Positions 8,290 through 54,487 of a DNA stretch of 64,000 nt are shown in pieces. The notes beneath the pieces were generated by a model. The model saw only the letters and a program-made list of their open reading frames with translations, was not told the DNA's origin and searched no databases. Position numbers and translations under genes: made by a program. The stretch spans positions 26,213 through 90,212 of the forward strand of contig JACRIK010000027.1 of the NCBI GenBank assembly GCA_016235865.1, written 5' to 3'. This DNA is from Planctomycetota bacterium. GTDB lineage: Bacteria > Planctomycetota > MHYJ01 > JACQXL01. Numbering within the stretch: position 1 is the stretch's first letter; every line of letters begins with the position of its first letter.

Positions 8290-11200
8290 TTAATGAACCG
8301 GGGTATTCATTGATTCCTGTGCCTGCCGGACAAAGGCCTCCAGGCGCATCTCCTCGCCCGGATTCTTGATGCCGTCCACGGTCATGGTCAGTACCGGAAT
8401 GTTGTATTCGTCCTTGAAGCGCTTGAGCAGGGCGGTGACGATATTGCCGGGCATGCAGCCGAAGGGAATAATATTGAGGATGCCGTTGAATCCGGCGTGG
8501 GCGTATTCCTCGGCCCGGCCCAGGCTCAGGACCGCCTCGCCTCTCAGGGCCGGTTCAATATAGGCCGAGCCGTGTTTGACCACCACCGAGGTCGGCGATT
8601 CATAGTGGAAATGCCGGATTTTTCCCTTGAAATGCTTCTTGATTTTATTCGCCTCGCGTTCCTGGAAGACCAGGGTGACTTTCTGCTTGATGAAACTCAA
8701 ATAGTCATTCTTGAGCAGGAAATCCTCTTCCCGGAGATAATCGATGTAATCCAGCCACTCCTCAAAAGGCGGCAGGGCCACCTCGGCGCCCAGCTCTTCC
8801 ATTTTAGCCACCGCGTGGTTGTTGGTGAAGGGATTGCTGCGCACGTAGATTTCGCCGATGACGCCGATCTTCGGCTTGGGCTTGGAATAATCGGTCTTGA
8901 TTTTGTCAAACCGCTTGATGGCGTCTTTGGTAAAGCCCTCGATATCGCCGTTCTCTTTGGGCGCGGACTCAATGAATTTCTGGAGACTCTGGAATGTCTC
9001 CGCATAAACCCGGTTGGTCTCGCCCTTGGTCGTTTCATAAGGCCGGGTTTCCCGGGCTAATTTCTGGAGCAGGTCCAGCAGCACCAGCCCGCGCCAGACG
9101 TTTTTCTTGAATTTGGCCGAACCGAGCACCGCCATATCCTTATGGAAATTGGCGGTTTGGTCAAAGGTCACTATGGGCACGTCATTTAAGCCCACCTCGT
9201 CCAGCACCATCCGGTGCAGTTTGTTATACTGGCCGAACCGGCAGGGTCCTTTGGCCGAAGGCATGAAAAAGGCGCTGCGGGCCGGCTTAAAATCCGGAAG
9301 CCGGCTCTGCTTGATAATATCGCCGGTGGTGATGATGCTCGGGAAGCACTCACGACCTGAGGTGTATTTCCGGCCGATAATCAGGCTCTCGTCATCGGAC
9401 GGCGGCAAGGCCTGTGAATCTATGCCGGCCGACCTGAATGCGGCCGCTATGACAAATCCGTGGTCATCCATATAAGGGATATAGATAGTCCGGGAATCGC
9501 GCGGCAGGGCCGCCAGCGATACAGTGGCCGACGGATGGCTGCTGGTGGTGGCCAGGTTCCGGGCGTGCTTTATCGTATCGATGAACGCCTCGCACCGGGT
9601 CTGCATTCCCACGTCCGCGCTGTGCTCGTCTATTTCCAGAGACAGGTAGGGCTTGCCGTGCATCTCCTTCTCGAAGAACTTGGTGATGTAGGAATCCGGC
9701 CCGCAGTTGAAGTTAGTCAGGTAGACCGCAAACAGGTTTTTAGTCCGTCCGATATAGCGGGCCGCGGCCAGGATTTTCTGGCCGGACCGCCAGTACATAT
9801 ACGGATAATCCCGGCCGATTTCCTCGCCCATGGCTTTCATCGGCAGGAAGTCAATCGGGATGACCGTCATGCCCAGCTTGCGCAGTTTCTCAGCCAGATT
9901 GAGATTCAGGCCGGTGTCATAACTGTTGTAGGAACGGGTCAGCAGCACCAGGGCCGGCGCGTTCCCGGCCAGGACCTCCTGGCCGCGTTCAACCTGCCAG
10001 CGGTCGAACCGCTCCTGGGCATCAAAGGCCCGCTCCATGCAGCGCTCGACATTATTCGTGTGGTGCTCGATGGACTTGGCTATCTTCTTTAAGGTTTTTT
10101 CTATTTCCTTCCGGCCCCGGTCCATATAAAATACCGGCCGGATGATTTTAGTATTGTATTTCTTATAATCAATGGCGCTCCGGGTGGTATCCGGCAATGC
10201 CTGGATATAAGGGCAGTTGTACGAACGGTCAAAGTGTTTGCTCAGGGGCGGCATATTCACCTGGAACGGGATAAACAGATAGTCAATGCCCTTTTCCAGG
10301 ACGTTAATGATATGGCCGTGCGCGGTCTTTATCGGGAAGCACGGCTCAGCCACCACGTTCTCCACGCCCTTCTTGATGACCGCCCGGTTGGTGTCGTCGG
10401 ATAAGACTATCTCCAGCCCCAGCTCCGAGAAGAAGGTATGCCAGAGCGGATACAGGTCGTAGAAGACCGAGATGCGCGGAATGCCGATTCTGGGTTTGGC
10501 GGCCTGTCCCTCCTTGTGGACGGGTAAAGTGTCCGCCTGCAGCAGCATCTTCTGGCGTTCCCTGAAGAAGTTGGGCGACTTGGCCCTCAAGTGCTGGGCC
10601 GATTGCTTGTCTTCGGTATCGTCGTATTTCCCGCAGCGCGAGCCGTAGTGCAGGGTTTTGGCCTTGGACTGCTCCCCGCTGAACTTGACCCGGTGTATCT
10701 CGCAGTTGTTCGGGCAATCCGTGCACTCAAACGATGATGATTCATATTGGATATGTTTCAGGTCGAAACCCTTGAATTTGGTTTTATAATCGCTGGTCTC
10801 TCTTTCCTCTTTAGCCATGATGGCCGCGCCGACCGCGCCCAGGATATCGTGATGGGGCGGGACAATCACCTTTTTTCCGGTCACCTGCTCAAAGGCGTTC
10901 TTGACCGCCCGGTTAAAGGCCACGCCGCCTTGGAAAAATATATGCTCGCCGACCTTGCGCTTTTCCACCACCTTGTTGAGATAATTCTCCACAATGGAAT
11001 AAGCCAGGCCGGAAATCAGGTCGTCCTTGGCCACGCCCAGCTGTTTGTAATAATTCAACTGCGATTCCACAAAGACCGTGCAGCGCTCGCCCAGCGAGCA
11101 CGGGCCGCCCGAGCAGAATGCCCGCTCGGCGAATTCCTGGTTAATCTTGATAGCCAGTTTTTCGGCCTGCTCTTCCAGGAACGAGCCGGTGCCGGCCGCG

Positions 11201-12540
11201 CAGACCTTGTTCATGGTGAAATCCACCACCACGCCGTCTTTGAGCGAGATGTATTTGGAATCCTGGCCGCCGATTTCAAAGATGGTATCCACCCGCGGGT
11301 CAGCCGCCACGGCCGCCCGGGCGTGGCTGGTAATCTCGTTCTTGATGACGTCCGCGCCGAAGAATTCGCCGGTCAGATGACGGCCTGAGCCGGTCGAGCC
11401 GGCGCCTTTGATGATGACCTTATCAGCAATCTCGGTCCCGACCTCAAGCAGACCCTGGCGCACCGCCTCGATGGGCTTGCCGGCCGTCATCAGGTAGCGC
11501 CGGGACAGAACGTTGTTGTTATTATCAATCACCACTACGTTGGTGGAAATGGAACCCACGTCCACCCCGACATAGGCCTCAATCTTGGCGCCCGGCTTAG
11601 TCGGATACGGTTCGACCCGGATGGTGTAGTCGTCGTTCTTGAGCGGCGCCAGTTTCTGGATGTCTAACTTGCGCTCGGACAGGTAGCGTTCCAAATCGCT
11701 GATAATCCGGGCCGGGCCGATGGGCATGCCCTTGATGCGCCGGGGCCGGTAAGAATGGGCCAGGGATAGGACCGAGCCGATGGCGCCCATAAAGGCAAAA
11801 TGCTCCGGTACGATGATGTCCTTTTCATCTATCTGGAGGATTTCCCGGAAGGCCCGAATCATGCCCTGATTGGCGGCCACGCCGCCCTGGAAGGCGATGG
11901 GCTTTTCTATATTAATCCCCTTGGCAATGCTGCTCTTAAAATTACGGGCCATGGCAAAGCACAGGCCGGCCAGGATATCGCCGATGGATGTGCCGACCTG
12001 CTGGAGATGAATCATATCGCTCTTGGCAAAGACGCTGCACCGGGCCGCCACGGTGGACGGATGTTTGGAATTCAGGGCCTCCCGACCCACGTCTTCTATC
12101 TTGATACCCATGCGCGAGGCCTGCTGGTCCAGGAACGAGCCGGTGCCGGCCGCGCAGGCCGAATTGGTGGCGAAATCAGTCACCCGGACTGCCTTTCCGT
12201 AATAAGAATCTACCTTGATGACCTTGGCATCCTCGCCGCCGATTTCAATGATGGTCTTGACTTTGGGGTAGAGCGTGCTGGTGCCGGTGGCCTGAGCGGT
12301 AATTTCATTGACAAAGGCCGCGTTGGTGAAGGTGGCCAGGTTCTTGCCGCCCGTGCCGGTGGTGGCGATGAACTCGATGTATTCCGGATTATGCCGGGTA
12401 AAGACATCCTTGAGAACGGCCAGCGTGGTCTCAAAGGGCTGGCCGTGCGAGCGGACGTATTGGGTCTCTTTGATCTTCAGGTCGCCATCCAGCACCACCA
12501 CCTTGACGGCCACAGAACCGATGTCAATGCCTAAATACAT
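8290..12540 (-). CDS. 1416-aa fusion of two BadF/BadG/BcrA/BcrD-type ATPase (CoA-substrate-specific enzyme activase, HgdC-like) domains to a C-terminal 2-hydroxyacyl-CoA dehydratase D-component-like (HgdB/DUF2229-like) domain
   Basis: Two ASKHA-fold starts (MYLGIDIGSVAVKVVVLDG and EAYVGVDVGSISTNVVVID), conserved Cys pairs (CAAGTGSFL twice) and a C-terminal segment RIGIPRISVFYDLYPLWHTFF typical of the dehydratase family. Confidence 0.8.
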   Translation of the reverse strand: MYLGIDIGSVAVKVVVLDGDLKIKETQYVRSHGQPFETTLAVLKDVFTRHNPEYIEFIATTGTGGKNLATFTNAAFVNEITAQATGTSTLYPKVKTIIEIGGEDAKVIKVDSYYGKAVRVTDFATNSACAAGTGSFLDQQASRMGIKIEDVGREALNSKHPSTVAARCSVFAKSDMIHLQQVGTSIGDILAGLCFAMARNFKSSIAKGINIEKPIAFQGGVAANQGMIRAFREILQIDEKDIIVPEHFAFMGAIGSVLSLAHSYRPRRIKGMPIGPARIISDLERYLSERKLDIQKLAPLKNDDYTIRVEPYPTKPGAKIEAYVGVDVGSISTNVVVIDNNNNVLSRRYLMTAGKPIEAVRQGLLEVGTEIADKVIIKGAGSTGSGRHLTGEFFGADVIKNEITSHARAAVAADPRVDTIFEIGGQDSKYISLKDGVVVDFTMNKVCAAGTGSFLEEQAEKLAIKINQEFAERAFCSGGPCSLGERCTVFVESQLNYYKQLGVAKDDLISGLAYSIVENYLNKVVEKRKVGEHIFFQGGVAFNRAVKNAFEQVTGKKVIVPPHHDILGAVGAAIMAKEERETSDYKTKFKGFDLKHIQYESSSFECTDCPNNCEIHRVKFSGEQSKAKTLHYGSRCGKYDDTEDKQSAQHLRAKSPNFFRERQKMLLQADTLPVHKEGQAAKPRIGIPRISVFYDLYPLWHTFFSELGLEIVLSDDTNRAVIKKGVENVVAEPCFPIKTAHGHIINVLEKGIDYLFIPFQVNMPPLSKHFDRSYNCPYIQALPDTTRSAIDYKKYNTKIIRPVFYMDRGRKEIEKTLKKIAKSIEHHTNNVERCMERAFDAQERFDRWQVERGQEVLAGNAPALVLLTRSYNSYDTGLNLNLAEKLRKLGMTVIPIDFLPMKAMGEEIGRDYPYMYWRSGQKILAAARYIGRTKNLFAVYLTNFNCGPDSYITKFFEKEMHGKPYLSLEIDEHSADVGMQTRCEAFIDTIKHARNLATTSSHPSATVSLAALPRDSRTIYIPYMDDHGFVIAAAFRSAGIDSQALPPSDDESLIIGRKYTSGRECFPSIITTGDIIKQSRLPDFKPARSAFFMPSAKGPCRFGQYNKLHRMVLDEVGLNDVPIVTFDQTANFHKDMAVLGSAKFKKNVWRGLVLLDLLQKLARETRPYETTKGETNRVYAETFQSLQKFIESAPKENGDIEGFTKDAIKRFDKIKTDYSKPKPKIGVIGEIYVRSNPFTNNHAVAKMEELGAEVALPPFEEWLDYIDYLREEDFLLKNDYLSFIKQKVTLVFQEREANKIKKHFKGKIRHFHYESPTSVVVKHGSAYIEPALRGEAVLSLGRAEEYAHAGFNGILNIIPFGCMPGNIVTALLKRFKDEYNIPVLTMTVDGIKNPGEEMRLEAFVRQAQESMNTPVH

Positions 12541-14180: not shown

Positions 14181-15515
14181 TTATTCATCGGATATTTTAG
14201 CGAAGACGACCTCGTGTCCGGCCCGGAGCAGTTTCTTGGCGTCTTCGTCGCATCTCAAGACCTTTTTGTAGAGCACGTCGCCCAAGATCTCGGCTTTGGC
14301 TTCCCGGTCTTCCTTGCTCAGGAAATAAGAGCCGACGGTGTCGTCCGAACAGCAGGAGCCGTCGCTTTCGTATTTCAGGGTCATGTCATAGCCCTGGTCC
14401 AGGACTTTTTGGGCGTTGGGGAACCAGTCATAGTCCTTGGCGCCCAGGTCGGCGTTGATGGCGATATGCGCGGTCAGGGACAGGTTCTTAATTTTCATTG
14501 TTTTGACCATATCTTTACAGGCCATAAATTTCTCGGCGTTAATCGCATTGCCCAGATTGATTTCCCGGACCGGCGTGGAGCCGTCCCGGCGCTTGAATTC
14601 CTTGAGGATGCCCAGCAAGACCCGGAATTGGATGAGGTTGTGCAGTCCCATAAAGCAGGAGATTTTAAATGACAGGTTGGGGATGTCATATCCGTAATAA
14701 CAGCCGGCGGCAATGGTGGACCAGCTGGGATTGAGGAAGAAGTTGTTGCCGGTTTCCAGGGCGGTTCGGGTGATGCTGTCCAGATAGACCAGATGGTTGT
14801 CGTTGCCGACCTCGATGCCGCATAAGTTTCCGAAGACGGTGCCCATATTGTTCATCCGGAGTTGTTTCATGTTGCTGCCCAGGTCGAGCGTATCCAGAGC
14901 CGCGCCGGTAATCTTTTTGATGCGGTCGAACCGGTGGGCCGGCAGGGGCACGCCCAGCAGCGAGGTAGAGCAGAATTTTCCGCCCATGATGTTTTCACAC
15001 ATTATCAGGGTGGCCAGCAAATCGCCGCCATAGACGTATTCCTCGGTCAGGGGCATGACCGAAATCATCTCGTTGGGCAGGAAGACTGAGCCGTTGTCGG
15101 CCAGCCGCTTCATACAGTTATGGGTGACCTTGTAACCCTGCCAGGCCGAGACCTGGGTGGTGGCAATGCCTTTCCGGAGCACCCGGATATTATTTTTCTT
15201 GTTGAAGGTGCCCGCCTTGGGGAATGATTTGGCGAACTCCTCGGCTTCCTGGATGAATTTACCGAATCCCTTTTTATCGGCGGTCTTCCGGCGCGAGGCA
15301 TAGTCCCGTTTGACCTCAATGGTCTTGACGATTTTCTTGGCTCCGCCGTAGGATGATTTGAGTTTATCAATGGCCTTCATTTCCGGGTTGCTCAAGTACG
15401 ATGTTTTCATAAGATGCATCCTTTTCTTACGGACTGTTAAATCTTTGGTTGTTATGACCTTAGGAGTCCCGCAGGGACAGTCCGTTAAACCCCGCATAAT
15501 TGCGGGGTCATCCAT
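14181..15515 (-). CDS. Hypothetical Cys-rich protein, 444 aa, family not recognised
   Basis: Long ORF with a 7-nt gap to the previous gene. Cys motifs CPCGTP (N-terminal), CGIEVGNDNH and GSCCSDD (C-terminal). Confidence 0.5.
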   Translation of the reverse strand: MDDPAIMRGLTDCPCGTPKVITTKDLTVRKKRMHLMKTSYLSNPEMKAIDKLKSSYGGAKKIVKTIEVKRDYASRRKTADKKGFGKFIQEAEEFAKSFPKAGTFNKKNNIRVLRKGIATTQVSAWQGYKVTHNCMKRLADNGSVFLPNEMISVMPLTEEYVYGGDLLATLIMCENIMGGKFCSTSLLGVPLPAHRFDRIKKITGAALDTLDLGSNMKQLRMNNMGTVFGNLCGIEVGNDNHLVYLDSITRTALETGNNFFLNPSWSTIAAGCYYGYDIPNLSFKISCFMGLHNLIQFRVLLGILKEFKRRDGSTPVREINLGNAINAEKFMACKDMVKTMKIKNLSLTAHIAINADLGAKDYDWFPNAQKVLDQGYDMTLKYESDGSCCSDDTVGSYFLSKEDREAKAEILGDVLYKKVLRCDEDAKKLLRAGHEVVFAKISDE

Positions 15516-15524
15516 TTCTATACA

Positions 15525-16508
15525 TTAATCCGCCACTTTCCACTGGGCGCCTCCGGGACCGATTATCGAAATAGGATTAGGGCCGGGCCATTGGAGGACT
15601 GTTTTACTTTGGTTGCTGCCCGGGTCGACTTCATAAATTGTGCCGCTTTCATCTACAATAAATGTTTTTGTGCCGGTTTTTCCGTACGTTTCCGGATAGG
15701 CGACAAAGGCGAACCTGGTCTGGTTGGCGGCCGGGATACCGGCCACCATTTCCTGGTTATAGGATTCCCCGGCCTCATCCTCGGACATGGCCTCGAACAA
15801 ATAGCCATATTTGGGCTGAACCTTGGCGCTGAGCCGTTGGGCTAATTTGCTATTCTCGAATATGCTGACATCGGCCGGAGAGGCATCGGCATTGGCCAGG
15901 TCAACGGAAATAAACTCGCATTTGGTCCGCCCGTCAGCTCGGAGCATCCGATACAGGCCGGAGACGTCATAGGTCCAATAATCCCGTATGCCATTGCCGT
16001 CCGCGTCCTGCTGGCGCCATAAGGCTTCGGCCGCAACTATTGCCCTGAGCGAGGCAACCGCGGATATCTCGTTGGCGGATATCCGGCTGCCCAGCAGGTC
16101 GGGCGCTAGCGCTTCCGACGAGAAAAGATTGTCCATTTCACCGGCTGATTTATCGATGCCCAGCTTTTGGGACTCCAATTCCTTTAGCACGCCGGTATGA
16201 TATGTTTCCCTGGCGGCTTGACGGCCGGTCATCAGATTGGGAATGGCAATAGCGGCGATGAGGACGATGGGCATCAGCACAAAGGCCAATCCGCCCAGGA
16301 CAATACCGGCAATGGCCTTGCCTTTGCCGGTCAGCAATCCCTTGGCGGCGTTAATCTTTACCAGGGCAATGATGCCGAAGATGATGGCCAGTAAAGAGGG
16401 AATGACTATCACGCACAGGATCAGGCCCGTGATGCCCAGGACCAAACTCCAGGTGGCGAATCCGCAGGATTGTGGTTTCGCGGCGGTATCGGTCTTTATC
16501 TCTTCCAT
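15525..16508 (-). CDS. Membrane protein, 327 aa: DUF4190-like N-terminal anchor followed by a type IV pilin/pseudopilin-like helix (AIAIPNLM) and a globular domain
   Basis: N-terminus AAKPQSCGFATWSLVLGITG ... KGKGKAIAGI, then ...LIAAIAIPNLMTGRQAARE resembling the mature pilin N-terminus but lacking a prepilin cleavage site. Confidence 0.6.
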   Translation of the reverse strand: MEEIKTDTAAKPQSCGFATWSLVLGITGLILCVIVIPSLLAIIFGIIALVKINAAKGLLTGKGKAIAGIVLGGLAFVLMPIVLIAAIAIPNLMTGRQAARETYHTGVLKELESQKLGIDKSAGEMDNLFSSEALAPDLLGSRISANEISAVASLRAIVAAEALWRQQDADGNGIRDYWTYDVSGLYRMLRADGRTKCEFISVDLANADASPADVSIFENSKLAQRLSAKVQPKYGYLFEAMSEDEAGESYNQEMVAGIPAANQTRFAFVAYPETYGKTGTKTFIVDESGTIYEVDPGSNQSKTVLQWPGPNPISIIGPGGAQWKVAD

Positions 16509-16545
16509 AATAGAAATCTTCTCCTTTAAGCAAGAGTTCTGTTAA

Positions 16546-17406
16546 TCAGTAACTCTCCCTAACCCTCCATTGCCTACCTCCGGGACCATATTCCTCACAT
16601 GGGTTTATGCCGGGCCATTGGAGGACTGTTTTCTGGCTATCACTTCCGCAATCAGTGCAATAGATAGTGCCTTCCTGATTAACAATATAAGTGTTTACGC
16701 CGGTTGTCCCATATGTTGCCGGATAGGCGACAAAGGCGAACTTGGTCTGGTTGGCGGCGGGGATGCCGTCCACCATTTCCTGGCCATAGGGCTGCCCGTT
16801 TGACTCTAATTCCATCGCTCTGAATAAATAGCCGTTCTTAGGCATTGAGCTTAGTTCCGGTAAGTCTGTAATCCGGAAATATGTATTGCCGAAGACGTCT
16901 GACCGGGCCGGATTAATATCTGCTCTGGCCAAATCAATGGGTATGAAAGCAACCTCGGTGGCATTATCTGGGCGTAGCGCCCGGTAAAAGCAGGAGACAT
17001 CATAGGTCCAATAATCCATTGCGCCATTGCCATCCGCGTCCTGCTGGCGCCATAAGGCTTCGGCAGAAGTCATCAATTTTAACGAGGCAGCAGCAGATGC
17101 CTCGTTGGCGGATATCCGGCCGCTCAGCAGATTGGGAATGGCAATAGCGGCCACGATGGCAATAAAGGGTATCATTACTACCCAAAGCCCGCCCAGGATG
17201 ATACCGGCAATGGCCTTGCCTTTGCCGACCAGCAGACCCTTGCTGTTGCCGATTTTGACCAGGGCCACGATGCCGAAGATTACGGCTAGTATAGAGGGAA
17301 TGATTAGCACGCACAGGACCAGGCCCGTGATGCCCAGGACCAAACTCCAGGTAGCCAGCCCGCAGGATTGTGGTTTCGCGGCGGTGTCGGTTGTTATCTC
17401 TCTCAT
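16546..17406 (-). CDS. Tandem paralog (286 aa) of the preceding DUF4190/pilin-like membrane protein
   Basis: The N-terminal 100 aa are nearly identical to 15525..16508 at protein and DNA level. It shares the WRQQDADGNG ... DYWTYDVS motif. Confidence 0.6.
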   Translation of the reverse strand: MREITTDTAAKPQSCGLATWSLVLGITGLVLCVLIIPSILAVIFGIVALVKIGNSKGLLVGKGKAIAGIILGGLWVVMIPFIAIVAAIAIPNLLSGRISANEASAAASLKLMTSAEALWRQQDADGNGAMDYWTYDVSCFYRALRPDNATEVAFIPIDLARADINPARSDVFGNTYFRITDLPELSSMPKNGYLFRAMELESNGQPYGQEMVDGIPAANQTKFAFVAYPATYGTTGVNTYIVNQEGTIYCTDCGSDSQKTVLQWPGINPCEEYGPGGRQWRVRESY

Positions 17407-17420
17407 AGATACCTCCTTCT

Positions 17421-18470
17421 TTAAATGGTGATTACCGGAATCGGCTTGGTAATACAGCCGAATTCATCCCCGAATCCCTCCAGGAAGACCAGAGAATAGG
17501 TTCTGAAGAAAACGGTTACCGGCAGGTAAAACACCTGAGATAAATAGTTAAATAAGATAATCAAGACAATAATGCCGACGGCGAAGAGCGCCCAGAAGGC
17601 GGGCCATTTTATAGCCAGGGCGGCAACCCCAATCAGGATTGCGCCCGGCATGGCCACGATACAGCAGAGCCCAAACATTGGGATGCACATGAGCATAAAC
17701 GCTCCCAAGGTCAATCCTATTTTAAGAAGCAGATAAAGCAGGAACTGTATTTTATTAGCGCGGAGTATCCGGAGGAATATCTTCCAGGCCTCTATGATTC
17801 TTATCCGGCGCAGATACATTATCGGAACGACAAAATCAACAGCCAAGACGCCAATTATCGCCAGAATGATAATAAGGCTGATAAAAGCTATCCCCAGCGC
17901 TACAAACCCCAGTATAATCCACAGGGAAAAACCCTTAGCCAGTCCGGCAAATATCAGGAGAGTCACCGGGATACCGATGATTAACAGGATGCCCAGAAAC
18001 GCGGATGGAGCAAATATTATCCGCCAGAGAAATAACGACCAGCCCGGAGCCCCGTTTTCTTTGTAGGCCTGCTTTATCATAACCTCCTTTTTTATCGTCC
18101 CATCGAGAAAGACAAAGGTGAACCTGGAGCCGAAATAGAGAAAGACCAGCCAGACAATAATAATAAGCAGGGCAATTAAGGCCCCGATAATAATAACCAG
18201 CGTCAGATTAGCCAGCACCCACTGGGACGCCTGGTTAAAGACGGGGTTTGATTCGGTGATTATCGCCCTGTCTCCTCTGTCGCCGGGCATATTGAAATTG
18301 AAGTTCGAGCCTTGGCCCGTTCCCAGCGCCATCAAAAAGGCCACCAGGCCGAACTTGAGCCATTTAACCAGTTTGAATGGCCTAAAGAGGACGGCAATCA
18401 TATGCTTGAATGCCGGGGTAATCGCATCAATCACGGAGATGGTCGGCTGCCTGGTTGAGAAATCTGTCAT
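17421..18470 (-). CDS. Polytopic membrane protein, 349 aa, unknown function
   Basis: At least 7 predicted hydrophobic helices. No catalytic motif recognised. Confidence 0.5.
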   Translation of the reverse strand: MTDFSTRQPTISVIDAITPAFKHMIAVLFRPFKLVKWLKFGLVAFLMALGTGQGSNFNFNMPGDRGDRAIITESNPVFNQASQWVLANLTLVIIIGALIALLIIIVWLVFLYFGSRFTFVFLDGTIKKEVMIKQAYKENGAPGWSLFLWRIIFAPSAFLGILLIIGIPVTLLIFAGLAKGFSLWIILGFVALGIAFISLIIILAIIGVLAVDFVVPIMYLRRIRIIEAWKIFLRILRANKIQFLLYLLLKIGLTLGAFMLMCIPMFGLCCIVAMPGAILIGVAALAIKWPAFWALFAVGIIVLIILFNYLSQVFYLPVTVFFRTYSLVFLEGFGDEFGCITKPIPVITI

Positions 18471-47851: not shown

Positions 47852-48137
47852 GGCGCTACGGAGGTACGTTATCGGCGCTATGGAGGCACGTCACCGGCCC
47901 TACAGAGGTGCATTCCAGGCGCTACAGAGGTGCATTCCAGGCACTACAAAGGTATATTCCAAGCATTACGAAGGTATATTCCAAGCGCTACAAAGGTATT
48001 CTCCAGGCATTACGAAGGTATGCTTCCGGCGCTACGAAGGTATGCTTCTGGCGTTACAGAGGTATGCTCCAGGCGCTACAGAGGTATGCTTCCGGCGCTA
48101 CGGAGGCACGTCACCGGCGCTATCATCGGTGTATGCT
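47852..48137. repeat. Tandem array of about 13 copies of a 22-bp unit (ggcgctacagaggtatgcttcc and variants) immediately upstream of the Type III mod gene
   Basis: Exact 22-nt period across 47852-48137. The three overlapping ORF-track entries 47777..48151, 47817..48218 and 47908..48186 are reading-frame artefacts of the repeat. Confidence 0.9.
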
Positions 48138-48223
48138 CACCATACGGATAGGAGGGCAAAAAACAAAGTATTTATTGCTTTTTTAATGAAGGCGGGTATG
48201 ATTATTACAAAGGAGTAATATTT

Positions 48224-49810
48224 ATGCCATCACTAAATTTTAAGGGTAAGAATGCAGTTTGGAATCATCATTTGTCCGTTCCATACCAGATACTGGAAAA
48301 GGATAAGAAGCTGTCACTCAAAGGCAAGAATGAGGATGAGAACCTGATTATAGAGGCGGATAATCTGGTCGCGCTAAAAAGCTTGTTACCGAAATATCAG
48401 GGCCGGATAAAGTGTATTTACATAGACCCGCCATATAATACCGGCAATGAAAATTGGGTTTATAGCGATAATGTCAGCAGTCCGTTAATAAAAGAATGGC
48501 TAAAAAAAGGGCCTGTTGGTTCTGAGGATTTAACCCGTCACGACAAATGGCTTTGTATGATGACGCCTCGCCTTAAACTTCTTCGTGAATTGATGAGTGA
48601 GGATGGTGTCATATTTGTTAGTATTAACGACATTGAGAGTTCTCATGTGCGTATGCTAATGGATGATATATTTAATGGTAATTTTATTGGTATGTTAATA
48701 TGGAGGAAAAAAGAGGGTGGAGGACAGACTGACGATTACTTTGTAACGGAACATGAGTATGTTCTTGCGTATGCTAAATCGCCAGATTTTAAATGGGTTG
48801 ATGAAACAATTCCGATAGATGAGGCAAAATTCAAGAAAGAAGATAATGACGGAAGATTTACTGCGGTTAAACTTGCTAAATGGGGTTCTGGAGCACGGAA
48901 AGAAGATCGGCCAACGATGCATTTTGCAATAAAATCTCCCGACGGTAAAAATGTGTATCCAAAAGCACCAGATGGGAGTGCTGGAAGGTGGCGCGTTGGG
49001 AAATTAACAATGGATAATCTTCTGGAAAATGGATTAGTCTACTGGGAGGAAAAAAATGGCGATTGGGTGGCCTACGAGAAAATCTATTATGACGAAGAAG
49101 ACGTTAAGACAATTAAAGAACGGAGCATACTATACGAATTAGCTTCTACTGGTGATGCCACGAAGGCGCTAACTGAGTTATTTGGGAAAAAGGATATATT
49201 TGAAAATCCTAAGCCAGTTGAACTTACTAAATTCTTAATGCGATATACCACTGATAAATCTTCAATTATTCTTGATTCCTTTGCTGGTTCGGGAACAACA
49301 GCCCAGGCGGTTTTAGAGTTAAATAAAGAAGATGGTAAGGAGGGGAATAGGAAAGTCATTTTAATTCAACTGCCAGAAGAAATTAGGAAAGATAAGCCAG
49401 CATATAAGGCTGGGTATAGATATGTTCACGAGATTACAAGAGAGCGCGTTAAACGAGTGATTGAAAGAGATAAATTGGGTGTTGGCTTTTCATACATGAA
49501 TCTTGGATCACAGATTGATGCGGATTCTATCTTATCAGGCAAGTTGCCAACCTATAAAGAGTTTGCCAAGTATGTTTATTATCTGGCAACCGGAAAGACA
49601 GGCAACGAGTCAATTTACCTTATATATGAAAAGGACAAGGACAAACTAAAGAAGCTGGCAATTACGCTTGAATGGGCAGAGCAGACAAACAAGAAAGACA
49701 AGGGCAAGAAGATTATCTATGCCCCGGCCTGTTTCATAGATGAAGAATACCTGGAGAAGTTTAATATCCATTTTGTGAGTATTCCTTATAATCTCTTTGA
49801 AAAGAAATAG
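48224..49810 (+). CDS. mod: Type III restriction-modification system methyltransferase (Mod), N6-adenine, beta-class, 528 aa
   Basis: Motif IV DPPYNTGN N-terminal to motif I DSFAGSGTT. Strong Shine-Dalgarno sequence aaggag. Followed 3 nt later by the res gene. Confidence 0.85.
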   Translation: MPSLNFKGKNAVWNHHLSVPYQILEKDKKLSLKGKNEDENLIIEADNLVALKSLLPKYQGRIKCIYIDPPYNTGNENWVYSDNVSSPLIKEWLKKGPVGSEDLTRHDKWLCMMTPRLKLLRELMSEDGVIFVSINDIESSHVRMLMDDIFNGNFIGMLIWRKKEGGGQTDDYFVTEHEYVLAYAKSPDFKWVDETIPIDEAKFKKEDNDGRFTAVKLAKWGSGARKEDRPTMHFAIKSPDGKNVYPKAPDGSAGRWRVGKLTMDNLLENGLVYWEEKNGDWVAYEKIYYDEEDVKTIKERSILYELASTGDATKALTELFGKKDIFENPKPVELTKFLMRYTTDKSSIILDSFAGSGTTAQAVLELNKEDGKEGNRKVILIQLPEEIRKDKPAYKAGYRYVHEITRERVKRVIERDKLGVGFSYMNLGSQIDADSILSGKLPTYKEFAKYVYYLATGKTGNESIYLIYEKDKDKLKKLAITLEWAEQTNKKDKGKKIIYAPACFIDEEYLEKFNIHFVSIPYNLFEKK

Positions 49811-49812
49811 AT

Positions 49813-52299
49813 ATGATTCTAAAGGATTATCAGATAGAGGTCATCGATAAACTAAAAGAGTTCTATACCGAGGCGGAAAAACAAAAGAGCGAGGTAGAGA
49901 AGTCAAATGATAAGGTTTTAAGAGAATCTGTTTCTTATGTTGATACTGTTTATACTAAGCTTGACCTGCATTTTGCCGACCGGCCTAAGAACGGCTTAGG
50001 ACAATCATATACCCGTTTTTGCCTGAAGATTCCGACCGGCGGGGGCAAGACCCTATTGGCAATTGAGGCCATCCGGGAATACCAAAACCTATTCGCCAAG
50101 AAAAGAACCGGGTTAGTGGTTTGGATAGCGCACCGCGAGACCATCTACCGCCAGACCATAGAGAAACTCAGGGATAAAAATCATATCTACCGCCAGTGGC
50201 TGGACCAATGCAGCGGCAACCGGACCATTATTCTGGAAAAAGGACAGCCGTTACGGATGCAGGACACGGACAGCAATCTGGTGATTCTGATGCTGATGAT
50301 TCAGTCGGCCGGAAAGAAAACCAAGGAAAATATGAAGGTCTTTCAGGACAGCGGCAAATATATTGACTTCTTCCCGCCGGATAACCAATACGAGGAGCAT
50401 GAAAAACTATTAAGGAGGGTCCCTAATCTTGATCCTACCCCTGGTGATGTATTCGGCAAGAGAATAATAAAGACCAGTTTAGGCAACATAATCAGGATGG
50501 AGAATCCGCTTATGATTGTGGATGAATTCCATACGATGTTTTCGGATATTGCCAAAAGCACGTTGGACGGCTTAAACCCATCAATGATAATCGGACTGTC
50601 GGCTACGCCCAAAAAACGGGAGGGCATGAATATTTTTATAGAAATTACGGGCAAGGCGCTTAAGGACGAGGAGATGATTAAATTAGATATGCACCTGCAT
50701 TCGCCGACTACCAGCGGAGATTGGCATGAAATGATTAACAGCGTCAGAAAGAAAAGGGAGACGTTGGAAAAGACAGCGACTGACTTTAACCGTAATAAGG
50801 GGATATATATCAGGCCGATAGCATTGATACAGGTAGAGCGAACGGGTAAAGACCAGAGGGGAAAAGAATTTGTGCACAGCGAGGATGTGCGCGAATATCT
50901 GGTTGCGCAAGGAGTTCCGGCTCATCAAATCGCGGTAAAATCAAGCGAAATGGATGAGATTAAAGAGGAAAAACTCTTATCGCAGACAAGCGAAATCAGA
51001 TACATCATTACCAAAGAGGCGTTAAAAGAGGGCTGGGATTGTTCATTTGCCTATGTTTTAGGGGTGATACCCAATGCCAGGTCTGAATCCTCAATGACCC
51101 AGTTGGTCGGCCGGATATTACGCCAGCCGTATGCCAAGAAGACCGGGGTGGCGGAATTGGATGAAAGTTATGTCTATTTTAACCAGGGCGATACGGAAGA
51201 TGTCCTGCATAACATCCAGCGCGGATTTGTAGAGGAGGGTTTGGGCGATTTGGTCCAGAATATCAGCCGGGAATCAGGCCCGACCGGCTCGGACAAGATA
51301 AAAACAAAGATTAAGAAAGATATTCTCAATAAATATCCTGAGTCGTTATATCTGCCGGTCTGGCTGGTTAAGGAAGATAACAAATACCGGCGGTTCTCTT
51401 ATGATATTGATATCAGGCCCAGGATTAACTGGCAAAACGGGCATTACGATAAATGGCTGGAAAAAGAAATCCTGCCTTTGCTTAGCGCGAAATCATCCGC
51501 TTATGAATATATAGTTGATTTGGACAATCGGCATGAAAGGCGGGATTTGGATGAGATGGATGAGGGCGTTTTTGATATTTCATACCTAACCCGCCGGATA
51601 TCCGATGTGGTTGATAATGCCTTTATTGCCTTTGACCTGGCTCAGGAATTTATCTCGGCCGGCGATAAATACAAAGACAGGCAAAAACTGCTAATCAACA
51701 GTGGATTCATTATCAAGGAAATCGTCAAGAAGTTGTCAGATGAAAAAATCCAGCAAGAGCAATTAATATTTGATTCATTACTGAAAGGCAAGGAATTAAT
51801 GCTGGCGGTCAGCGATGACGAGCAGGTCGGGTATTCGTTGCCGAAAAATAATGAGGTCTATCCGGAATATGCCGAGACATATAAACTGAATCTTTTTGAG
51901 AAGTCGGATATAAAATCAATGAATTCGCTGGAGCGGAGAATTGCCGGTTCTATTGATAATAAGAAAAATGTAATCTGGTGGGCGCGGAATATAGCCAGCA
52001 GCAGGAAATGGTATGCCATAAGAGGTTGGAAGAGAGGCAAAATCAGGCCTGATTTTATCGTGGCCAGGAAGAATAAAAGCGATGCGTTGGAACTCGTTTA
52101 TATCATTGAGAGCAAGGGCGAACATTTAATTGGCAATCCGGATACGATTTATAAAAAGAGCGTATTTGATAAGATGAATCAGGAAACCATTGAACAGGTA
52201 ACCCTGAAACTAATCAAGTTTAAGCTGAATAAGGACTTTAGGTTTGAACTGGTTGAGCAGGGACAGGAAGATATTGAGATAAACAGATTCTTTAATTAA
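49813..52299 (+). CDS. res: Type III restriction enzyme Res subunit (SF2 helicase domain plus C-terminal PD-(D/E)xK nuclease), 828 aa
   Basis: Motif I KIPTGGGKT, motif II MIVDEFH, helicase C-domain, and C-terminal RPDF ... ELVYIIESKGEH endonuclease motif. Confidence 0.85.
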   Translation: MILKDYQIEVIDKLKEFYTEAEKQKSEVEKSNDKVLRESVSYVDTVYTKLDLHFADRPKNGLGQSYTRFCLKIPTGGGKTLLAIEAIREYQNLFAKKRTGLVVWIAHRETIYRQTIEKLRDKNHIYRQWLDQCSGNRTIILEKGQPLRMQDTDSNLVILMLMIQSAGKKTKENMKVFQDSGKYIDFFPPDNQYEEHEKLLRRVPNLDPTPGDVFGKRIIKTSLGNIIRMENPLMIVDEFHTMFSDIAKSTLDGLNPSMIIGLSATPKKREGMNIFIEITGKALKDEEMIKLDMHLHSPTTSGDWHEMINSVRKKRETLEKTATDFNRNKGIYIRPIALIQVERTGKDQRGKEFVHSEDVREYLVAQGVPAHQIAVKSSEMDEIKEEKLLSQTSEIRYIITKEALKEGWDCSFAYVLGVIPNARSESSMTQLVGRILRQPYAKKTGVAELDESYVYFNQGDTEDVLHNIQRGFVEEGLGDLVQNISRESGPTGSDKIKTKIKKDILNKYPESLYLPVWLVKEDNKYRRFSYDIDIRPRINWQNGHYDKWLEKEILPLLSAKSSAYEYIVDLDNRHERRDLDEMDEGVFDISYLTRRISDVVDNAFIAFDLAQEFISAGDKYKDRQKLLINSGFIIKEIVKKLSDEKIQQEQLIFDSLLKGKELMLAVSDDEQVGYSLPKNNEVYPEYAETYKLNLFEKSDIKSMNSLERRIAGSIDNKKNVIWWARNIASSRKWYAIRGWKRGKIRPDFIVARKNKSDALELVYIIESKGEHLIGNPDTIYKKSVFDKMNQETIEQVTLKLIKFKLNKDFRFELVEQGQEDIEINRFFN

Positions 52300-52335
52300 T
52301 AGGGGGAATACCCCTCCTTTCTCTAATGTAAAACT

Positions 52336-54183
52336 ATGTATTTCACAAAGCCCGTTTTAGCGGTAATCAAAAGAGTTATAAAAGACCTGAAAACCCGGAC
52401 AGAACTTGATAACTTATTTGAATCGTATGGCTTTGATCCTAAAAAAGATTGTGATGTTGGCAATAAATTAAATCTGGCTGGTTCATATTTAGACCATCAA
52501 GATTGGAGTGATGGAACAACGGCACATAATTTATTGGAGCTTTTGACCGAAGTTCTTCTGGGCGAGAAAGAGTCAGATACCTATCGCTGGCCCCAGGTGG
52601 AATTAATGCTTAACGCGCTAATTAAAGACAGCTATTACTGGATTAATAAGAATAAGAAATTTATCAGACAAGGTGAGCCATTTCCGCAACCCGCATTAAA
52701 TAAACCTGTTGAGCAAAAGCCTTCTGCGGAGAAGACGCCAGCTATTTTACCAGAAAATACCGGGGAGATAGCAGGAAAATACGTTAAAGAGATTCTTGAT
52801 AGGGAAAGAAATAATTTATTGTTTATAAGCAAATTCCTGGTTGATATAAAGCCCTTCTGGAATGACTGGCAATCATTTAAAGTAAAACTTCTTACAGTAC
52901 TTAACAATGAGAAAAAACGGATTATTATTAACGGGCAGGTTATCTTAGAGGTAAGTCCGATTGACTCTAAGGAAAAGCCCATTCTCCTTGAAATAGATAA
53001 TTTTTTCCAGGGCATTACTTTCCGCTATCCTTTTGCTGAATTAGAAGGATTCCTTAAAAACCTTATGACCGGCAAGGTGGTTGCTCAGGGAGAAGAATAT
53101 CATTTTGTGAACACCTCTCTTGGGCCATACGGTCCGGTTTGGGTGAACTACGCATATGATTACCCCGCACCAGTGAGCATGATAGAATCATTGAGCGGTA
53201 AAACAGCGTTTGCCATAGATTACAACGGAGATAAACTCTCAAACATTCTTGATAATACCAAAATTAAATGGCAGGACTTTTACCGGACTTGTCGGGGAAA
53301 AGGTTATAATGACCCATCTTACTTATTTAGATTATTCTTCGGATTAAGGGATGCTTATGTTACCAACGATTACCAGACCCAAATATGGATATATGCACCA
53401 ATTGATGTTTATATCAAGGAGTTTAAACCGCTTAAAAATAAATTGTCGGCCGTTATCTGGGCTGGCCCGTTAATAAAGCCGGATAATGTTGCATTGCGAT
53501 TTGTTCCCAGTAGGGAATCCCTTCCAGAACAAAGACCGGAATTTAAGCTGTCTGATTTTTCGCCACAAGGCAATTGTTTGTACCAGAAAGATATCCCAGC
53601 TGATTTTGATCAAACAGCTTTTATTGATTTAACCTATAAGGAAAAATTATTTTCAAAGGAACTTGAAATGCCGACATCTTCCGAAGATAAGCCCATTACT
53701 TTATCTATGGCAAAGAAATCAAAGATAGGCGCTAAAAATACTACAATTATTCATATGCCTAAAGGAACTAAGCCCAATGATATTACTTTTAGATTTAAAG
53801 ACCGCCGAACGATGGATGTTTTACTAAAAGATAATACCTTTAAGAGTAATGTATCATTTGATGAACTTGGATTTCAAAAGCAAAGCACCGGCAAAAAGAA
53901 GAAATCAGAACCAAGTATGCTATGGGAATTATTGGTAACGATGAGTGTAAATTATTCTAACCCGGGTTGGTCTTTTAAGGACAAGTCCACTAAAGGAAGG
54001 CAGCAGATAAGTTTACTTAGGGACAAACTTAAAACATTGCTAAATATAGAAGACGACCCCATTCCACTTAATTCTGAATTAAGAGGTTATCGCCCGGAAA
54101 TTCGTCTTGAGCCGCCACCAGATGAGCGACATCATTCCTATATAAATCCTGACGAAAAAGAGTCTGATTTGGAAGACGAGTAA
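52336..54183 (+). CDS. Hypothetical protein, 615 aa, no recognisable domain. Co-oriented immediately downstream of res within the AT-rich island
   Basis: Long ORF with AT-rich codon usage like mod and res. No Walker, nuclease or transmembrane motifs recognised by eye. Acidic, Lys-rich C-terminus. Confidence 0.6.
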   Translation: MYFTKPVLAVIKRVIKDLKTRTELDNLFESYGFDPKKDCDVGNKLNLAGSYLDHQDWSDGTTAHNLLELLTEVLLGEKESDTYRWPQVELMLNALIKDSYYWINKNKKFIRQGEPFPQPALNKPVEQKPSAEKTPAILPENTGEIAGKYVKEILDRERNNLLFISKFLVDIKPFWNDWQSFKVKLLTVLNNEKKRIIINGQVILEVSPIDSKEKPILLEIDNFFQGITFRYPFAELEGFLKNLMTGKVVAQGEEYHFVNTSLGPYGPVWVNYAYDYPAPVSMIESLSGKTAFAIDYNGDKLSNILDNTKIKWQDFYRTCRGKGYNDPSYLFRLFFGLRDAYVTNDYQTQIWIYAPIDVYIKEFKPLKNKLSAVIWAGPLIKPDNVALRFVPSRESLPEQRPEFKLSDFSPQGNCLYQKDIPADFDQTAFIDLTYKEKLFSKELEMPTSSEDKPITLSMAKKSKIGAKNTTIIHMPKGTKPNDITFRFKDRRTMDVLLKDNTFKSNVSFDELGFQKQSTGKKKKSEPSMLWELLVTMSVNYSNPGWSFKDKSTKGRQQISLLRDKLKTLLNIEDDPIPLNSELRGYRPEIRLEPPPDERHHSYINPDEKESDLEDE

Positions 54184-54487
54184 GACTGGTTGTGAAATCA
54201 ACCCTCTGGATTTCACATAATTCACAACAATTCCAATAATTCTTGAAAAATCTCGCTATCTAACATCTTTAAACTATTGAAGTTGTAGCAAGTAGTTTAA
54301 CCGCTAAAAGATTACCCCTTGTTTTTTGCCTATTTCACGGCCTAATTATAGAGGCACACGTTCGGGACGTCACCGGAAGCGGATGCGTGATGTCATCCAA
54401 TCCCGTCCGGACTTGTCTTCTATGAGTATCTGCTTGATGCCTGTTTGGCAGTTAGTCATATAAATAACAAAATAGGTGGGAACGACT

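Follow-up and report, generated by a model that had tools for sequence, protein, structure and literature searches.

The window analysed here is a stretch of 64,000 nucleotides from a Planctomycetota bacterium (GenBank assembly GCA_016235865.1, contig JACRIK010000027.1, positions 26,213 to 90,212 of the forward strand), and this report concerns two adjacent genes within it, geneA and geneB, whose products combine a DUF4190 membrane module, a pilin-like helix and a DUF2950 head. The original prediction, made from the letters of the stretch, had described the pair as tandem paralogs. Both open reading frames (ORFs) were confirmed, at 15525–16508 and 16546–17406 on the minus strand, and the helix strings that had been quoted were found in both proteins. 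The genes are separated by 37 bases, and the start codon of each is preceded by a Shine-Dalgarno sequence (GGAGG, 6 nt upstream of the geneB ATG; AGGAG ahead of that of geneA). The two proteins share 54% identity (E 1e-114), and the chief difference between them is a block of ~45 residues unique to geneA. It was found that geneB is identical to a database entry (P0001) named 'DUF2950 family protein [Planctomycetes bacterium]', and that geneA matches another entry (P0007) in length and source. Because the architecture is common to 41 aligned database relatives (40 besides geneB, geneA being one of the 40), it was confirmed that the pairing of DUF4190 with a pilin-like helix is real and far beyond chance. 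The features of the two genes are given below, where alpha1 is the long N-terminal helix of pilins, HMM a hidden Markov model of it, AF2 an AlphaFold2 model and pLDDT the predicted local distance difference test score.

15525–16508, minus strand: geneA, 327 aa, architecture like that of geneB with a partly duplicated alpha1 and a linker
15528–16019, minus strand: geneA head, residues 164–327, DUF2950 (PF11453, E 1.1e-15; AF2)
16020–16103, minus strand: geneA second alpha1 copy, residues 136–163, PDLLGSRISANEISAVASLRAIVAAEAL (HMM positions 10–37, 35.5 bits, E 3e-13)
16104–16166, minus strand: geneA linker, residues 115–135, low-confidence helix end and break (AF2 pLDDT 57–72)
16167–16268, minus strand: geneA first alpha1 copy, residues 81–114, IVLIAAIAIPNLMTGRQAARETYHTGVLKELES (HMM positions 1–34, 34.6 bits, E 5e-13)
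16272–16457, minus strand: geneA DUF4190 module, residues 18–79 (PF13828, E 2.9e-12; AF2 helices 16–30 and 35–54)
16546–17406, minus strand: geneB, 286 aa, DUF4190 hairpin, pilin-type alpha1 and DUF2950 pilin-fold head (ORF)
16549–17040, minus strand: geneB head, residues 123–286, DUF2950, beta-sheet, pilin-type
16993–17040, minus strand: geneB loop D123-x-D125-G-N127-G-x-x-D131-Y-W-T-Y-D-V-S138 at the end of alpha1 (column counts)
17041–17223, minus strand: geneB continuous 61-residue helix, residues 62–122 (AF2 pLDDT 85–98; alpha1 HMM; junction alignment)
17173–17358, minus strand: geneB DUF4190 module, residues 17–78 (PF13828, 48 bits; AF2 helices; hydropathy and charge)

The DUF4190-like two-helix anchor that had been proposed was borne out, as Pfam DUF4190 (PF13828) matched both proteins above its cut-off, with E 3e-12 for geneA and 1e-12 for geneB (46.6 and 48.0 bits against a gathering threshold of 35). 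In geneB the module is composed of hairpin helices 16–30 and 35–54, a Lys-rich loop at 51–64 and the start of the third helix. The hydropathy profile exhibited a 35-residue hydrophobic block at 17–52 with a central Pro and a second block at 67–96; the loop between them contains 3 Lys and 0 acidic residues, and the ectodomain is net acidic. A small bridge in the AF2 model pairs residues 13–14 with 59–60, which puts the N-terminal tail and the loop on one side. From this contact and the positive-inside rule, we infer that the tail and the loop are cytoplasmic, that the first block forms a hairpin and that the third helix points outward as the helix of a prepilin does. Nothing functional on DUF4190 was found in the literature. 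A DUF4190 module with a similar style of N-terminal sequence was observed fused to an FGE-sulfatase (sulfatase-modifying factor) domain in another protein (P0124), and the DUF4190 anchor therefore also carries non-pilin passengers.

The third hydrophobic helix had been predicted to read like a mature pilin N-terminus, to stand apart from the anchor and to lack a prepilin-peptidase site. The motif G[FMLIV][TS][LIV][IVLM]E (G-F-T-L-I-E type) occurred 0 times in geneA, geneB or any ORF of the window, in agreement with the last point. Pfam N_methyl (PF07963) gave no match at E ≤ 1 in either protein, and the NCBIfam pilin models scored far below their cut-offs over residues 76–118. N_methyl chiefly models the cleavage motif and the early helix, which is the part that was replaced, and its failure is therefore part of the observation and not evidence against homology. 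An HMM covering alpha1 positions 13–49, built solely from N_methyl-bearing relatives and used in place of the Pfam and NCBIfam models, matched geneA as well as geneB, the latter over residues 82–118 at 67.6 bits (E 2e-23). The segment thus failed the standard pilin models and matched the one derived from prepilins downstream of the cleavage region.

A large protein search returned 798 relatives, of which the best ~45 had DUF4190 with DUF2950, followed by a tier with N_methyl and DUF2950 that showed 45–50% identity over the C-terminal 68% of geneB; several of the latter were named prepilin-type cleavage/methylation proteins by their source, and ~55 of the 120 relatives among the matches listed carried PF07963. 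The BLASTP alignment of geneB with one such prepilin (P0047; 52% identity, E 1e-62) began exactly at geneB Pro91 and P0047 Pro27, which is mature position 22 of P0047, and extended to the C-terminus. The aligned prepilin relatives read G, then, after the cleavage point, FTLIELMIVIAIIAIIAAIAIPNLLSGRxSANExSA..LKL.TS.EA.W.QQD.DGNG.KDYWTYDVS, and the corresponding sequence of geneB is GKGKAIAGIILGGLWVVMIPFIAIVAAIAIPNLLSGRISANEASAAASLKLMTSAEALWRQQDADGNGAMDYWTYDVS. In the junction alignment, Pro91 corresponds to pilin Pro22, Ile70 to Phe1, Ile69 to Gly-1 and Leu74 to Glu5; positions −1 and +1 are thus both Ile, Leu takes the place of Glu at mature position 5, and ~68 residues with two hydrophobic helices lie ahead where a prepilin has its leader. 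A profile of the whole family matched solved pilins (geopilin, PilA; E 2e-7 to 4e-5) on the alpha1 helix alone, and phmmer against Protein Data Bank (PDB) sequences gave alpha1 matches only, which were marginal (E 0.05–0.2). These sequence comparisons indicated that, starting near residue 13 of the mature pilin, the helix of geneA and geneB is a true homologue of alpha1, and that the cleavage motif and the first dozen residues of the mature helix have been exchanged. The first third of the third helix belongs to the DUF4190 model, and the junction is therefore inside the membrane helix; the pilin-like character of the helix was upheld, and its separateness from DUF4190 was not. By Pfam, geneA and geneB are members of both DUF2950 and DUF4190, and they are prepilin homologues that lack the leader, Gly-1, Phe+1, Glu+5 and an N_methyl match.

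The C-terminal domains of both proteins matched Pfam DUF2950 (PF11453) with E 1e-15 for geneA and 3e-14 for geneB (58.0 and 53.2 bits against a gathering threshold of 20.2). The AF2 model of geneB, run on an alignment of 118 sequences, had a mean pLDDT of 93.5 and showed a hairpin at 16–54, an uninterrupted helix at 62–122 and then a beta-rich head. The head has the alpha/beta pilin fold, in line with the pilin-like ectodomain that had been foreseen, and is not an unrelated fold; the helix is hydrophobic in its N-terminal half (alpha1-N) with Pro22 and amphipathic thereafter (alpha1-C), as in prepilins. A Foldseek search against the PDB gave weak matches only (best E 0.011). The ectodomain holds 4 Cys in geneB and 1 in geneA. 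In the loop at the end of alpha1, D125, N127, D131, Y132, W133, T134, D136 and S138 were each found in at least 113 of the 118 sequences (D125 in 115, N127 in 114, D131 in 115, W133 in 118, D136 in 117 and S138 in 118), and the head also has many near-invariant aromatic residues. We take the DxDxNGxxD stretch to resemble calcium loops of the DxDxDG type, and because of this pattern the geneB loop is a candidate metal (Ca2+) site.

Nothing functional on DUF2950 was found in the literature. In root-nodule bacteria, DUF2950 proteins have signal peptides and are always downstream of DUF3300 (PMC4653623). The heads of geneA and geneB pass the same Pfam gathering score, but the proteins differ from this pattern in having a DUF4190 N-terminus instead of a Sec signal peptide and DUF7544 as the upstream gene, with no DUF3300 adjacent.

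The shaft of geneA differs from that of geneB. Its first alpha1 copy is continuous with the membrane helix, which AF2 extended over residues 62–122 with low confidence from about residue 90; a break at 123–135 was followed by a helix at 136–167 (pLDDT >95) packed on the head, the model being less confident over 90–140. The segment from the Pro to the ANE motif is 55 residues long in geneA compared with 9 in geneB. A self-alignment of geneA for internal duplication was not significant, as 300 of 2000 shuffles reached its score; the duplication was instead assigned from two independent alpha1 profile matches, with which the AF2 break agrees. By this model the shaft is partly repeated in geneA, and the head of geneA is predicted to sit on a longer, jointed stalk.

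To measure constraint on the helix, mean pairwise identity was calculated within the DUF2950 family for 41 DUF4190 types and 48 N_methyl types. The heads were nearly equal, at 0.53 for DUF4190 types and 0.52 for N_methyl types. For the membrane part of alpha1, the identity was 0.97 among N_methyl types and 0.45 among DUF4190 types, and for alpha1-C the values were 0.67 and 0.48, respectively. It was also observed that 13 of the 41 DUF4190 types, from three lineages, have 37–56 residues between the Pro and ANE compared with 9 in the others, an insert of 28–47 residues that sits exactly where alpha1 exits the membrane. Moreover, the DUF2950 head was found behind a polytopic transmembrane region, a lipobox-like signal, a Cys-rich region, and a T2SSE_N domain with a transmembrane segment. 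On the basis of the identities in alpha1-N, the inserts and the interchangeable anchors, we read the DUF4190 types as freed from the constraints under which alpha1-N stays invariant in pilins that assemble, such that the head needs a tether and not a filament. Neither the window genes that were checked nor the neighbourhoods of the relatives examined included a pilus or secretion gene (peptidase, ATPase, platform).

In P0073, the head follows a T2SSE_N (PF05157) domain, which is cytoplasmic, and then a membrane segment. The T2SSE_N-type domain of MshE binds cyclic di-GMP, and P0073 is a hint that cytoplasmic signalling may be coupled to some of the heads. In four proteins of 413–424 aa (P0042, P0044, P0045, P0057), the head starts with 'SGRISANE' after a CxxC-repeat-rich region of ~200 residues, which replaces the pilin or DUF4190 helix.

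The DUF4190 junction is not confined to DUF2950 proteins. When residues 1–112 of geneB were searched against 1.84 billion cluster representatives, 3221 matches were obtained at E ≤ 1e-3 and 213 at E ≤ 1e-10. The best 150 were inspected; these were ranked by similarity to the query and are thus unfit for judging helix conservation across the class. All of them matched Pfam DUF4190, and the prepilin-derived alpha1 HMM matched 122 at E ≤ 1e-3 and 104 at E ≤ 1e-8. Within the 150, the alpha1 helix was never preceded by a cleavage motif of the G-F-T-L-I-E type, the lone match to the cleavage expression being a member without the pilin-helix motif, and N_methyl matched at most 1. About 40% (~60 of 150) start with a zinc ribbon, which geneA and geneB do not have. 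Pfam assigned the heads to DUF2950 (13), T2SSG (8, best E 5e-29), DUF1559/SBP_bac_10 (5) and ComP_DUS (4), and most had no Pfam assignment. GspG signatures (DPWGxPY...DDITNW) and H-x9-DG signatures of the DUF1559 type could be read directly in the sequences of members, and the source names included 'general secretion pathway protein G', 'type IV pilus assembly protein PilA' and 'DUF4190 domain-containing protein [Candidatus Omnitrophota bacterium]'. At the two genes of this wider class whose surroundings were examined, no machinery neighbours were present. Judged by these matches, the replacement of a leader by DUF4190 recurs in well over a hundred other protein clusters. Nothing was found in the literature on leaderless, anchored pilins or on a DUF4190-pilin architecture; a paper on Caulobacter CpaL concerns a cleavable pilin-like module.

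We propose, with a probability of roughly two in three, that geneA and geneB are leader-swapped descendants of DUF2950 prepilins and are most likely uncleaved, unpolymerised, fixed pilin heads tethered to the membrane. Their ancestry would lie in a Planctomycetota-specific prepilin-type family with DUF2950 heads, in which a DUF4190 module took the place of both the class III signal peptide and the opening ~12 residues of the mature helix. A short N-terminal tail would remain in the cytoplasm, the two short helices would form a hairpin in the cytoplasmic membrane, and the Lys-rich loop would return to the cytoplasmic face. The third helix would then cross the membrane outward and continue as the alpha1-C shaft, unbroken in geneB, with the pilin-fold head on top of it in the periplasm. 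As the proteins lack Gly-1, Phe+1 and Glu+5 and have a membrane hairpin in place of the short leader, they would most likely be neither cut by prepilin peptidase nor extracted into a filament, and would stay fixed in the membrane. The release of alpha1-N from constraint provides the main support, which is indirect. The near-invariant DxDxNGxxD-YWTYDxS loop and the invariant aromatics suggest that the head may bind ligands through a metal-dependent surface kept a fixed distance away from the membrane, a distance that in geneA would be extended by the partly duplicated helix and the linker. Of the earlier interpretation, which was partly supported, the core reading was retained, given the homology to genuine prepilins and the pilin-fold head.

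Several observations weigh against this proposal. In many members the part of alpha1 that derives from pilin is well conserved and still easy to recognise, which could mean that an interaction with pilins or with the assembly machinery was retained. A conserved glycine (G68 in geneB) precedes the Pro by 23 residues, one more than the canonical distance of 22 from Gly-1 to Pro22, and cryptic processing at this DUF4190 Gly is possible from the sequence. The hairpin helices are short, at 15 and 20 residues, and could be re-entrant rather than fully spanning. No solved structure matched the head by sequence, either with phmmer or with the family profile against the PDB, and no DUF2950 member has been characterised (PMC4653623).

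A retained interaction would be expected if these were uncleaved pilin-like proteins that dock through alpha1 onto the pilins or the platform of a type IV pilus or type II secretion-like machine, serving as a fixed base subunit or a terminator, or else regulating or sensing the pilin pool. The strongly pilin-like 13–49 segment of geneB (67.6 bits), together with its presence in 122 of the 150 DUF4190 representatives, is consistent with docking, as is the co-occurrence of anchored, prepilin-type and other DUF2950 paralogues in single metagenome-assembled genomes (MAGs), for example MAG219 (L014, L021, L030). The zinc ribbon, which is cytoplasmic, in 60 of the 150 and the T2SSE_N domain of P0073 would both fit coupling across the membrane. 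Nevertheless, alpha1-N of the DUF2950 lineage is no better kept than the head (0.45 versus 0.53, compared with 0.97 in the prepilin relatives), in a third of members the shaft is interrupted by inserts and the duplicated helix, heads with wholly non-pilin anchors exist, and machinery genes were not found nearby. We therefore consider docking unlikely.

The conserved Gly might instead mark the cleavage site of a prepilin with an oversized leader, cut after G68 in geneB and assembled as a minor or tip pilin lacking Glu5. The spacing of 23 was found in 81 of the 122 scored representatives as well as in geneB, against 22 in prepilins, and basic residues lie ahead of it (GKGKAIAG). Some minor pseudopilins, such as GspK, have no Glu5. 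On the other hand, the G-x-G-x-A-x-x-G motif at the start of the last helix also occurs in DUF4190 proteins with non-pilin heads, e.g. P0124, and is therefore a DUF4190 feature and not a pilin one. To our knowledge no prepilin has a leader containing two membrane helices. With the failure of N_methyl and a relaxation of alpha1-N that argues against passage through a peptidase and a filament core, processing of this kind seems doubtful, and more so than docking. A fortuitous resemblance, in which a generic hydrophobic helix precedes an unrelated periplasmic DUF2950 domain, would suit the N_methyl failure, the NCBIfam scores far under their cut-offs, the best Foldseek E of 0.011 and the ordinary signal peptides of rhizobial DUF2950 proteins (PMC4653623), but it is already contradicted by the helix homology and the head fold and is very improbable.

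The duplication that gave rise to geneA and geneB had been taken as recent. It was calculated that the head of geneA is 0.78 identical to that of P0016 and the head of geneB 0.70 identical to that of P0002, compared with 0.59 between geneA and geneB. In a neighbour-joining tree of the heads, which was rough and used just for grouping into A-type and B-type and not for counting fusion events, geneA was grouped with relatives of 323–327 residues that share its insert and geneB with P0002–P0004. Close relatives hold one type only, A or B, at the syntenic position. As the orthologue identities exceed 0.59, each gene being nearer to its own-type orthologues than to its window partner, and as the closest relatives carry one type, the duplication is old rather than recent. 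Gene conversion of the N-termini was considered and was not supported, since these are 0.77 identical to each other and 0.82–0.84 to those of orthologues.

A scan of species-representative genomes gave 52 loci, all in Planctomycetota MAGs, with 2–7 loci per genome. Tandem arrays of 2–4 genes were common among the N_methyl types, and the DUF4190 types were single-copy in every other recovered locus. Runs of 3–4 consecutive genes with DUF2950 heads, mostly prepilin-type, were seen in L038 (3375–6651), L055 (3722–6699), L015, L052 and L061. ORFs of 680–1130 aa, with starts as called, end in a DUF2950 head in L013, L020, L023, L051, L054 and L056, and a 290-aa protein with a faint DUF4190 match (L005, 5706–6578, minus strand) is encoded a few genes away from two prepilin-type DUF2950 genes in tandem. 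The window pair is flanked by the following genes.

14181–15515, minus strand: downstream flank, 444-aa protein without significant Pfam or NCBIfam match
17421–18470, minus strand: upstream neighbour, polytopic DUF7544 membrane protein (Pfam PF24400, E 1e-48)

The closest relatives (L006, L007) have both flanking genes and are the only ones to preserve the order RNR-flavoprotein-DUF7544-X-unknown-DUF2148; L008 retains the downstream flank, and the distant relatives have neither. Distant DUF4190-DUF2950 genes lie between dnaN and dciA/gyrB, after secA, or after an SHMT/GCV_T fusion. In two MAGs (L001, 6001–6960; L002, 6001–6927), the gene is inside the dnaA-dnaN-gyrB cluster of the origin region, between dnaN and dciA/gyrB. 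DUF7544 was rejected as a demonstrated partner, because its adjacency is lost at the more distant genes. A promoter and terminator scan gave counts not above those of shuffled sequences.

Elsewhere in the window, positions 48000–54200 had a GC content of 0.38–0.45 compared with ~0.5 in the rest, and this region is probably an acquired restriction-modification island. Its three large ORFs, and a further large ORF outside it, are as follows.

48224–49810, plus strand: N6/N4 DNA methylase
49813–52299, plus strand: type III restriction ResIII/DEAD helicase
52336–54183, plus strand: 615-aa protein without Pfam match
8290–12540, minus strand: 1416-aa ORF with two BcrAD/BadFG-type activase ATPase domains, DUF2229 and a weak match to the 2-hydroxyglutaryl-CoA dehydratase D-component

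Among known systems, the N_methyl DUF2950 proteins of Planctomycetota (P0047, P0050, P0059) are similar to geneA and geneB in alpha1 from about residue 13, in Pro22 and in a head with DxDxNGxxDYWTYDVS (45–52% identity). They occur in the same phylum and even the same MAGs, often in tandem arrays, and have a short basic leader with Gly-1, Phe+1 and Glu+5 where geneA and geneB have the DUF4190 hairpin. With type IV pilins and type II secretion pseudopilins (Thermus PilA4, 6xxd; Neisseria PilX, 2opd; Pseudomonas PilE, 4noa), the window proteins share a long N-terminal helix with a hydrophobic first half and Pro22, and an alpha1-C packed on an antiparallel sheet. They differ from them in having no class III signal peptide, Glu5, N_methyl match or nearby assembly genes, and in a larger head of ~165 residues with a long alpha-beta loop. 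In contrast to DUF4190 proteins with other heads, with which they share the start of the last helix, that helix runs straight into pilin alpha1. The other DUF4190-anchored pilin-like proteins, with T2SSG/GspG, DUF1559/SBP_bac_10, ComP_DUS or unassigned heads, show the same N-terminal swap and the same Gly-to-Pro spacing, and belong to different head families and other phyla (e.g. Candidatus Omnitrophota). The archaeal sugar-binding proteins of the Sulfolobus 'bindosome' carry class III signal peptides and are a precedent for a pilin-type N-terminus that serves surface-tethered binders instead of long fibres. These proteins are cut by PibD, a prepilin-type peptidase, and depend on an assembly system, whereas the window proteins have no cleavage motif.

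What defines a pilin is a class III signal peptide that can be cleaved off, together with an invariant N-terminal helix that serves extraction from the membrane and fibre stacking. In the proteins described here, a pilin shaft and head are joined to another anchor that seems to be permanent, an arrangement seen with at least four pilin head families. It is possible, and we put it forward tentatively, that the DUF4190-anchored pilin-fold proteins form a large undescribed class, of at least ~200 clusters at 50% identity in several phyla, with DUF2950, GspG, DUF1559 or ComP heads and often a zinc ribbon, in which the pilin fold was taken from the filament cycle and now serves as a permanently tethered periplasmic receptor or transmembrane coupler; a variant in which they are fixed base subunits for pili appears less likely. 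For DUF2950, the results place part of the family structurally and evolutionarily for the first time, as a head with the pilin fold, and for DUF4190 they suggest a role as an interchangeable anchor for extracytoplasmic domains. The anchored forms would also be natural constructs for studying pilin heads as ordinary membrane proteins. If the proteins do remain membrane-bound, a pilin head can function in the absence of a filament, which bears on the puzzle of what role the very large pilin-like gene families play in Planctomycetota and related phyla.

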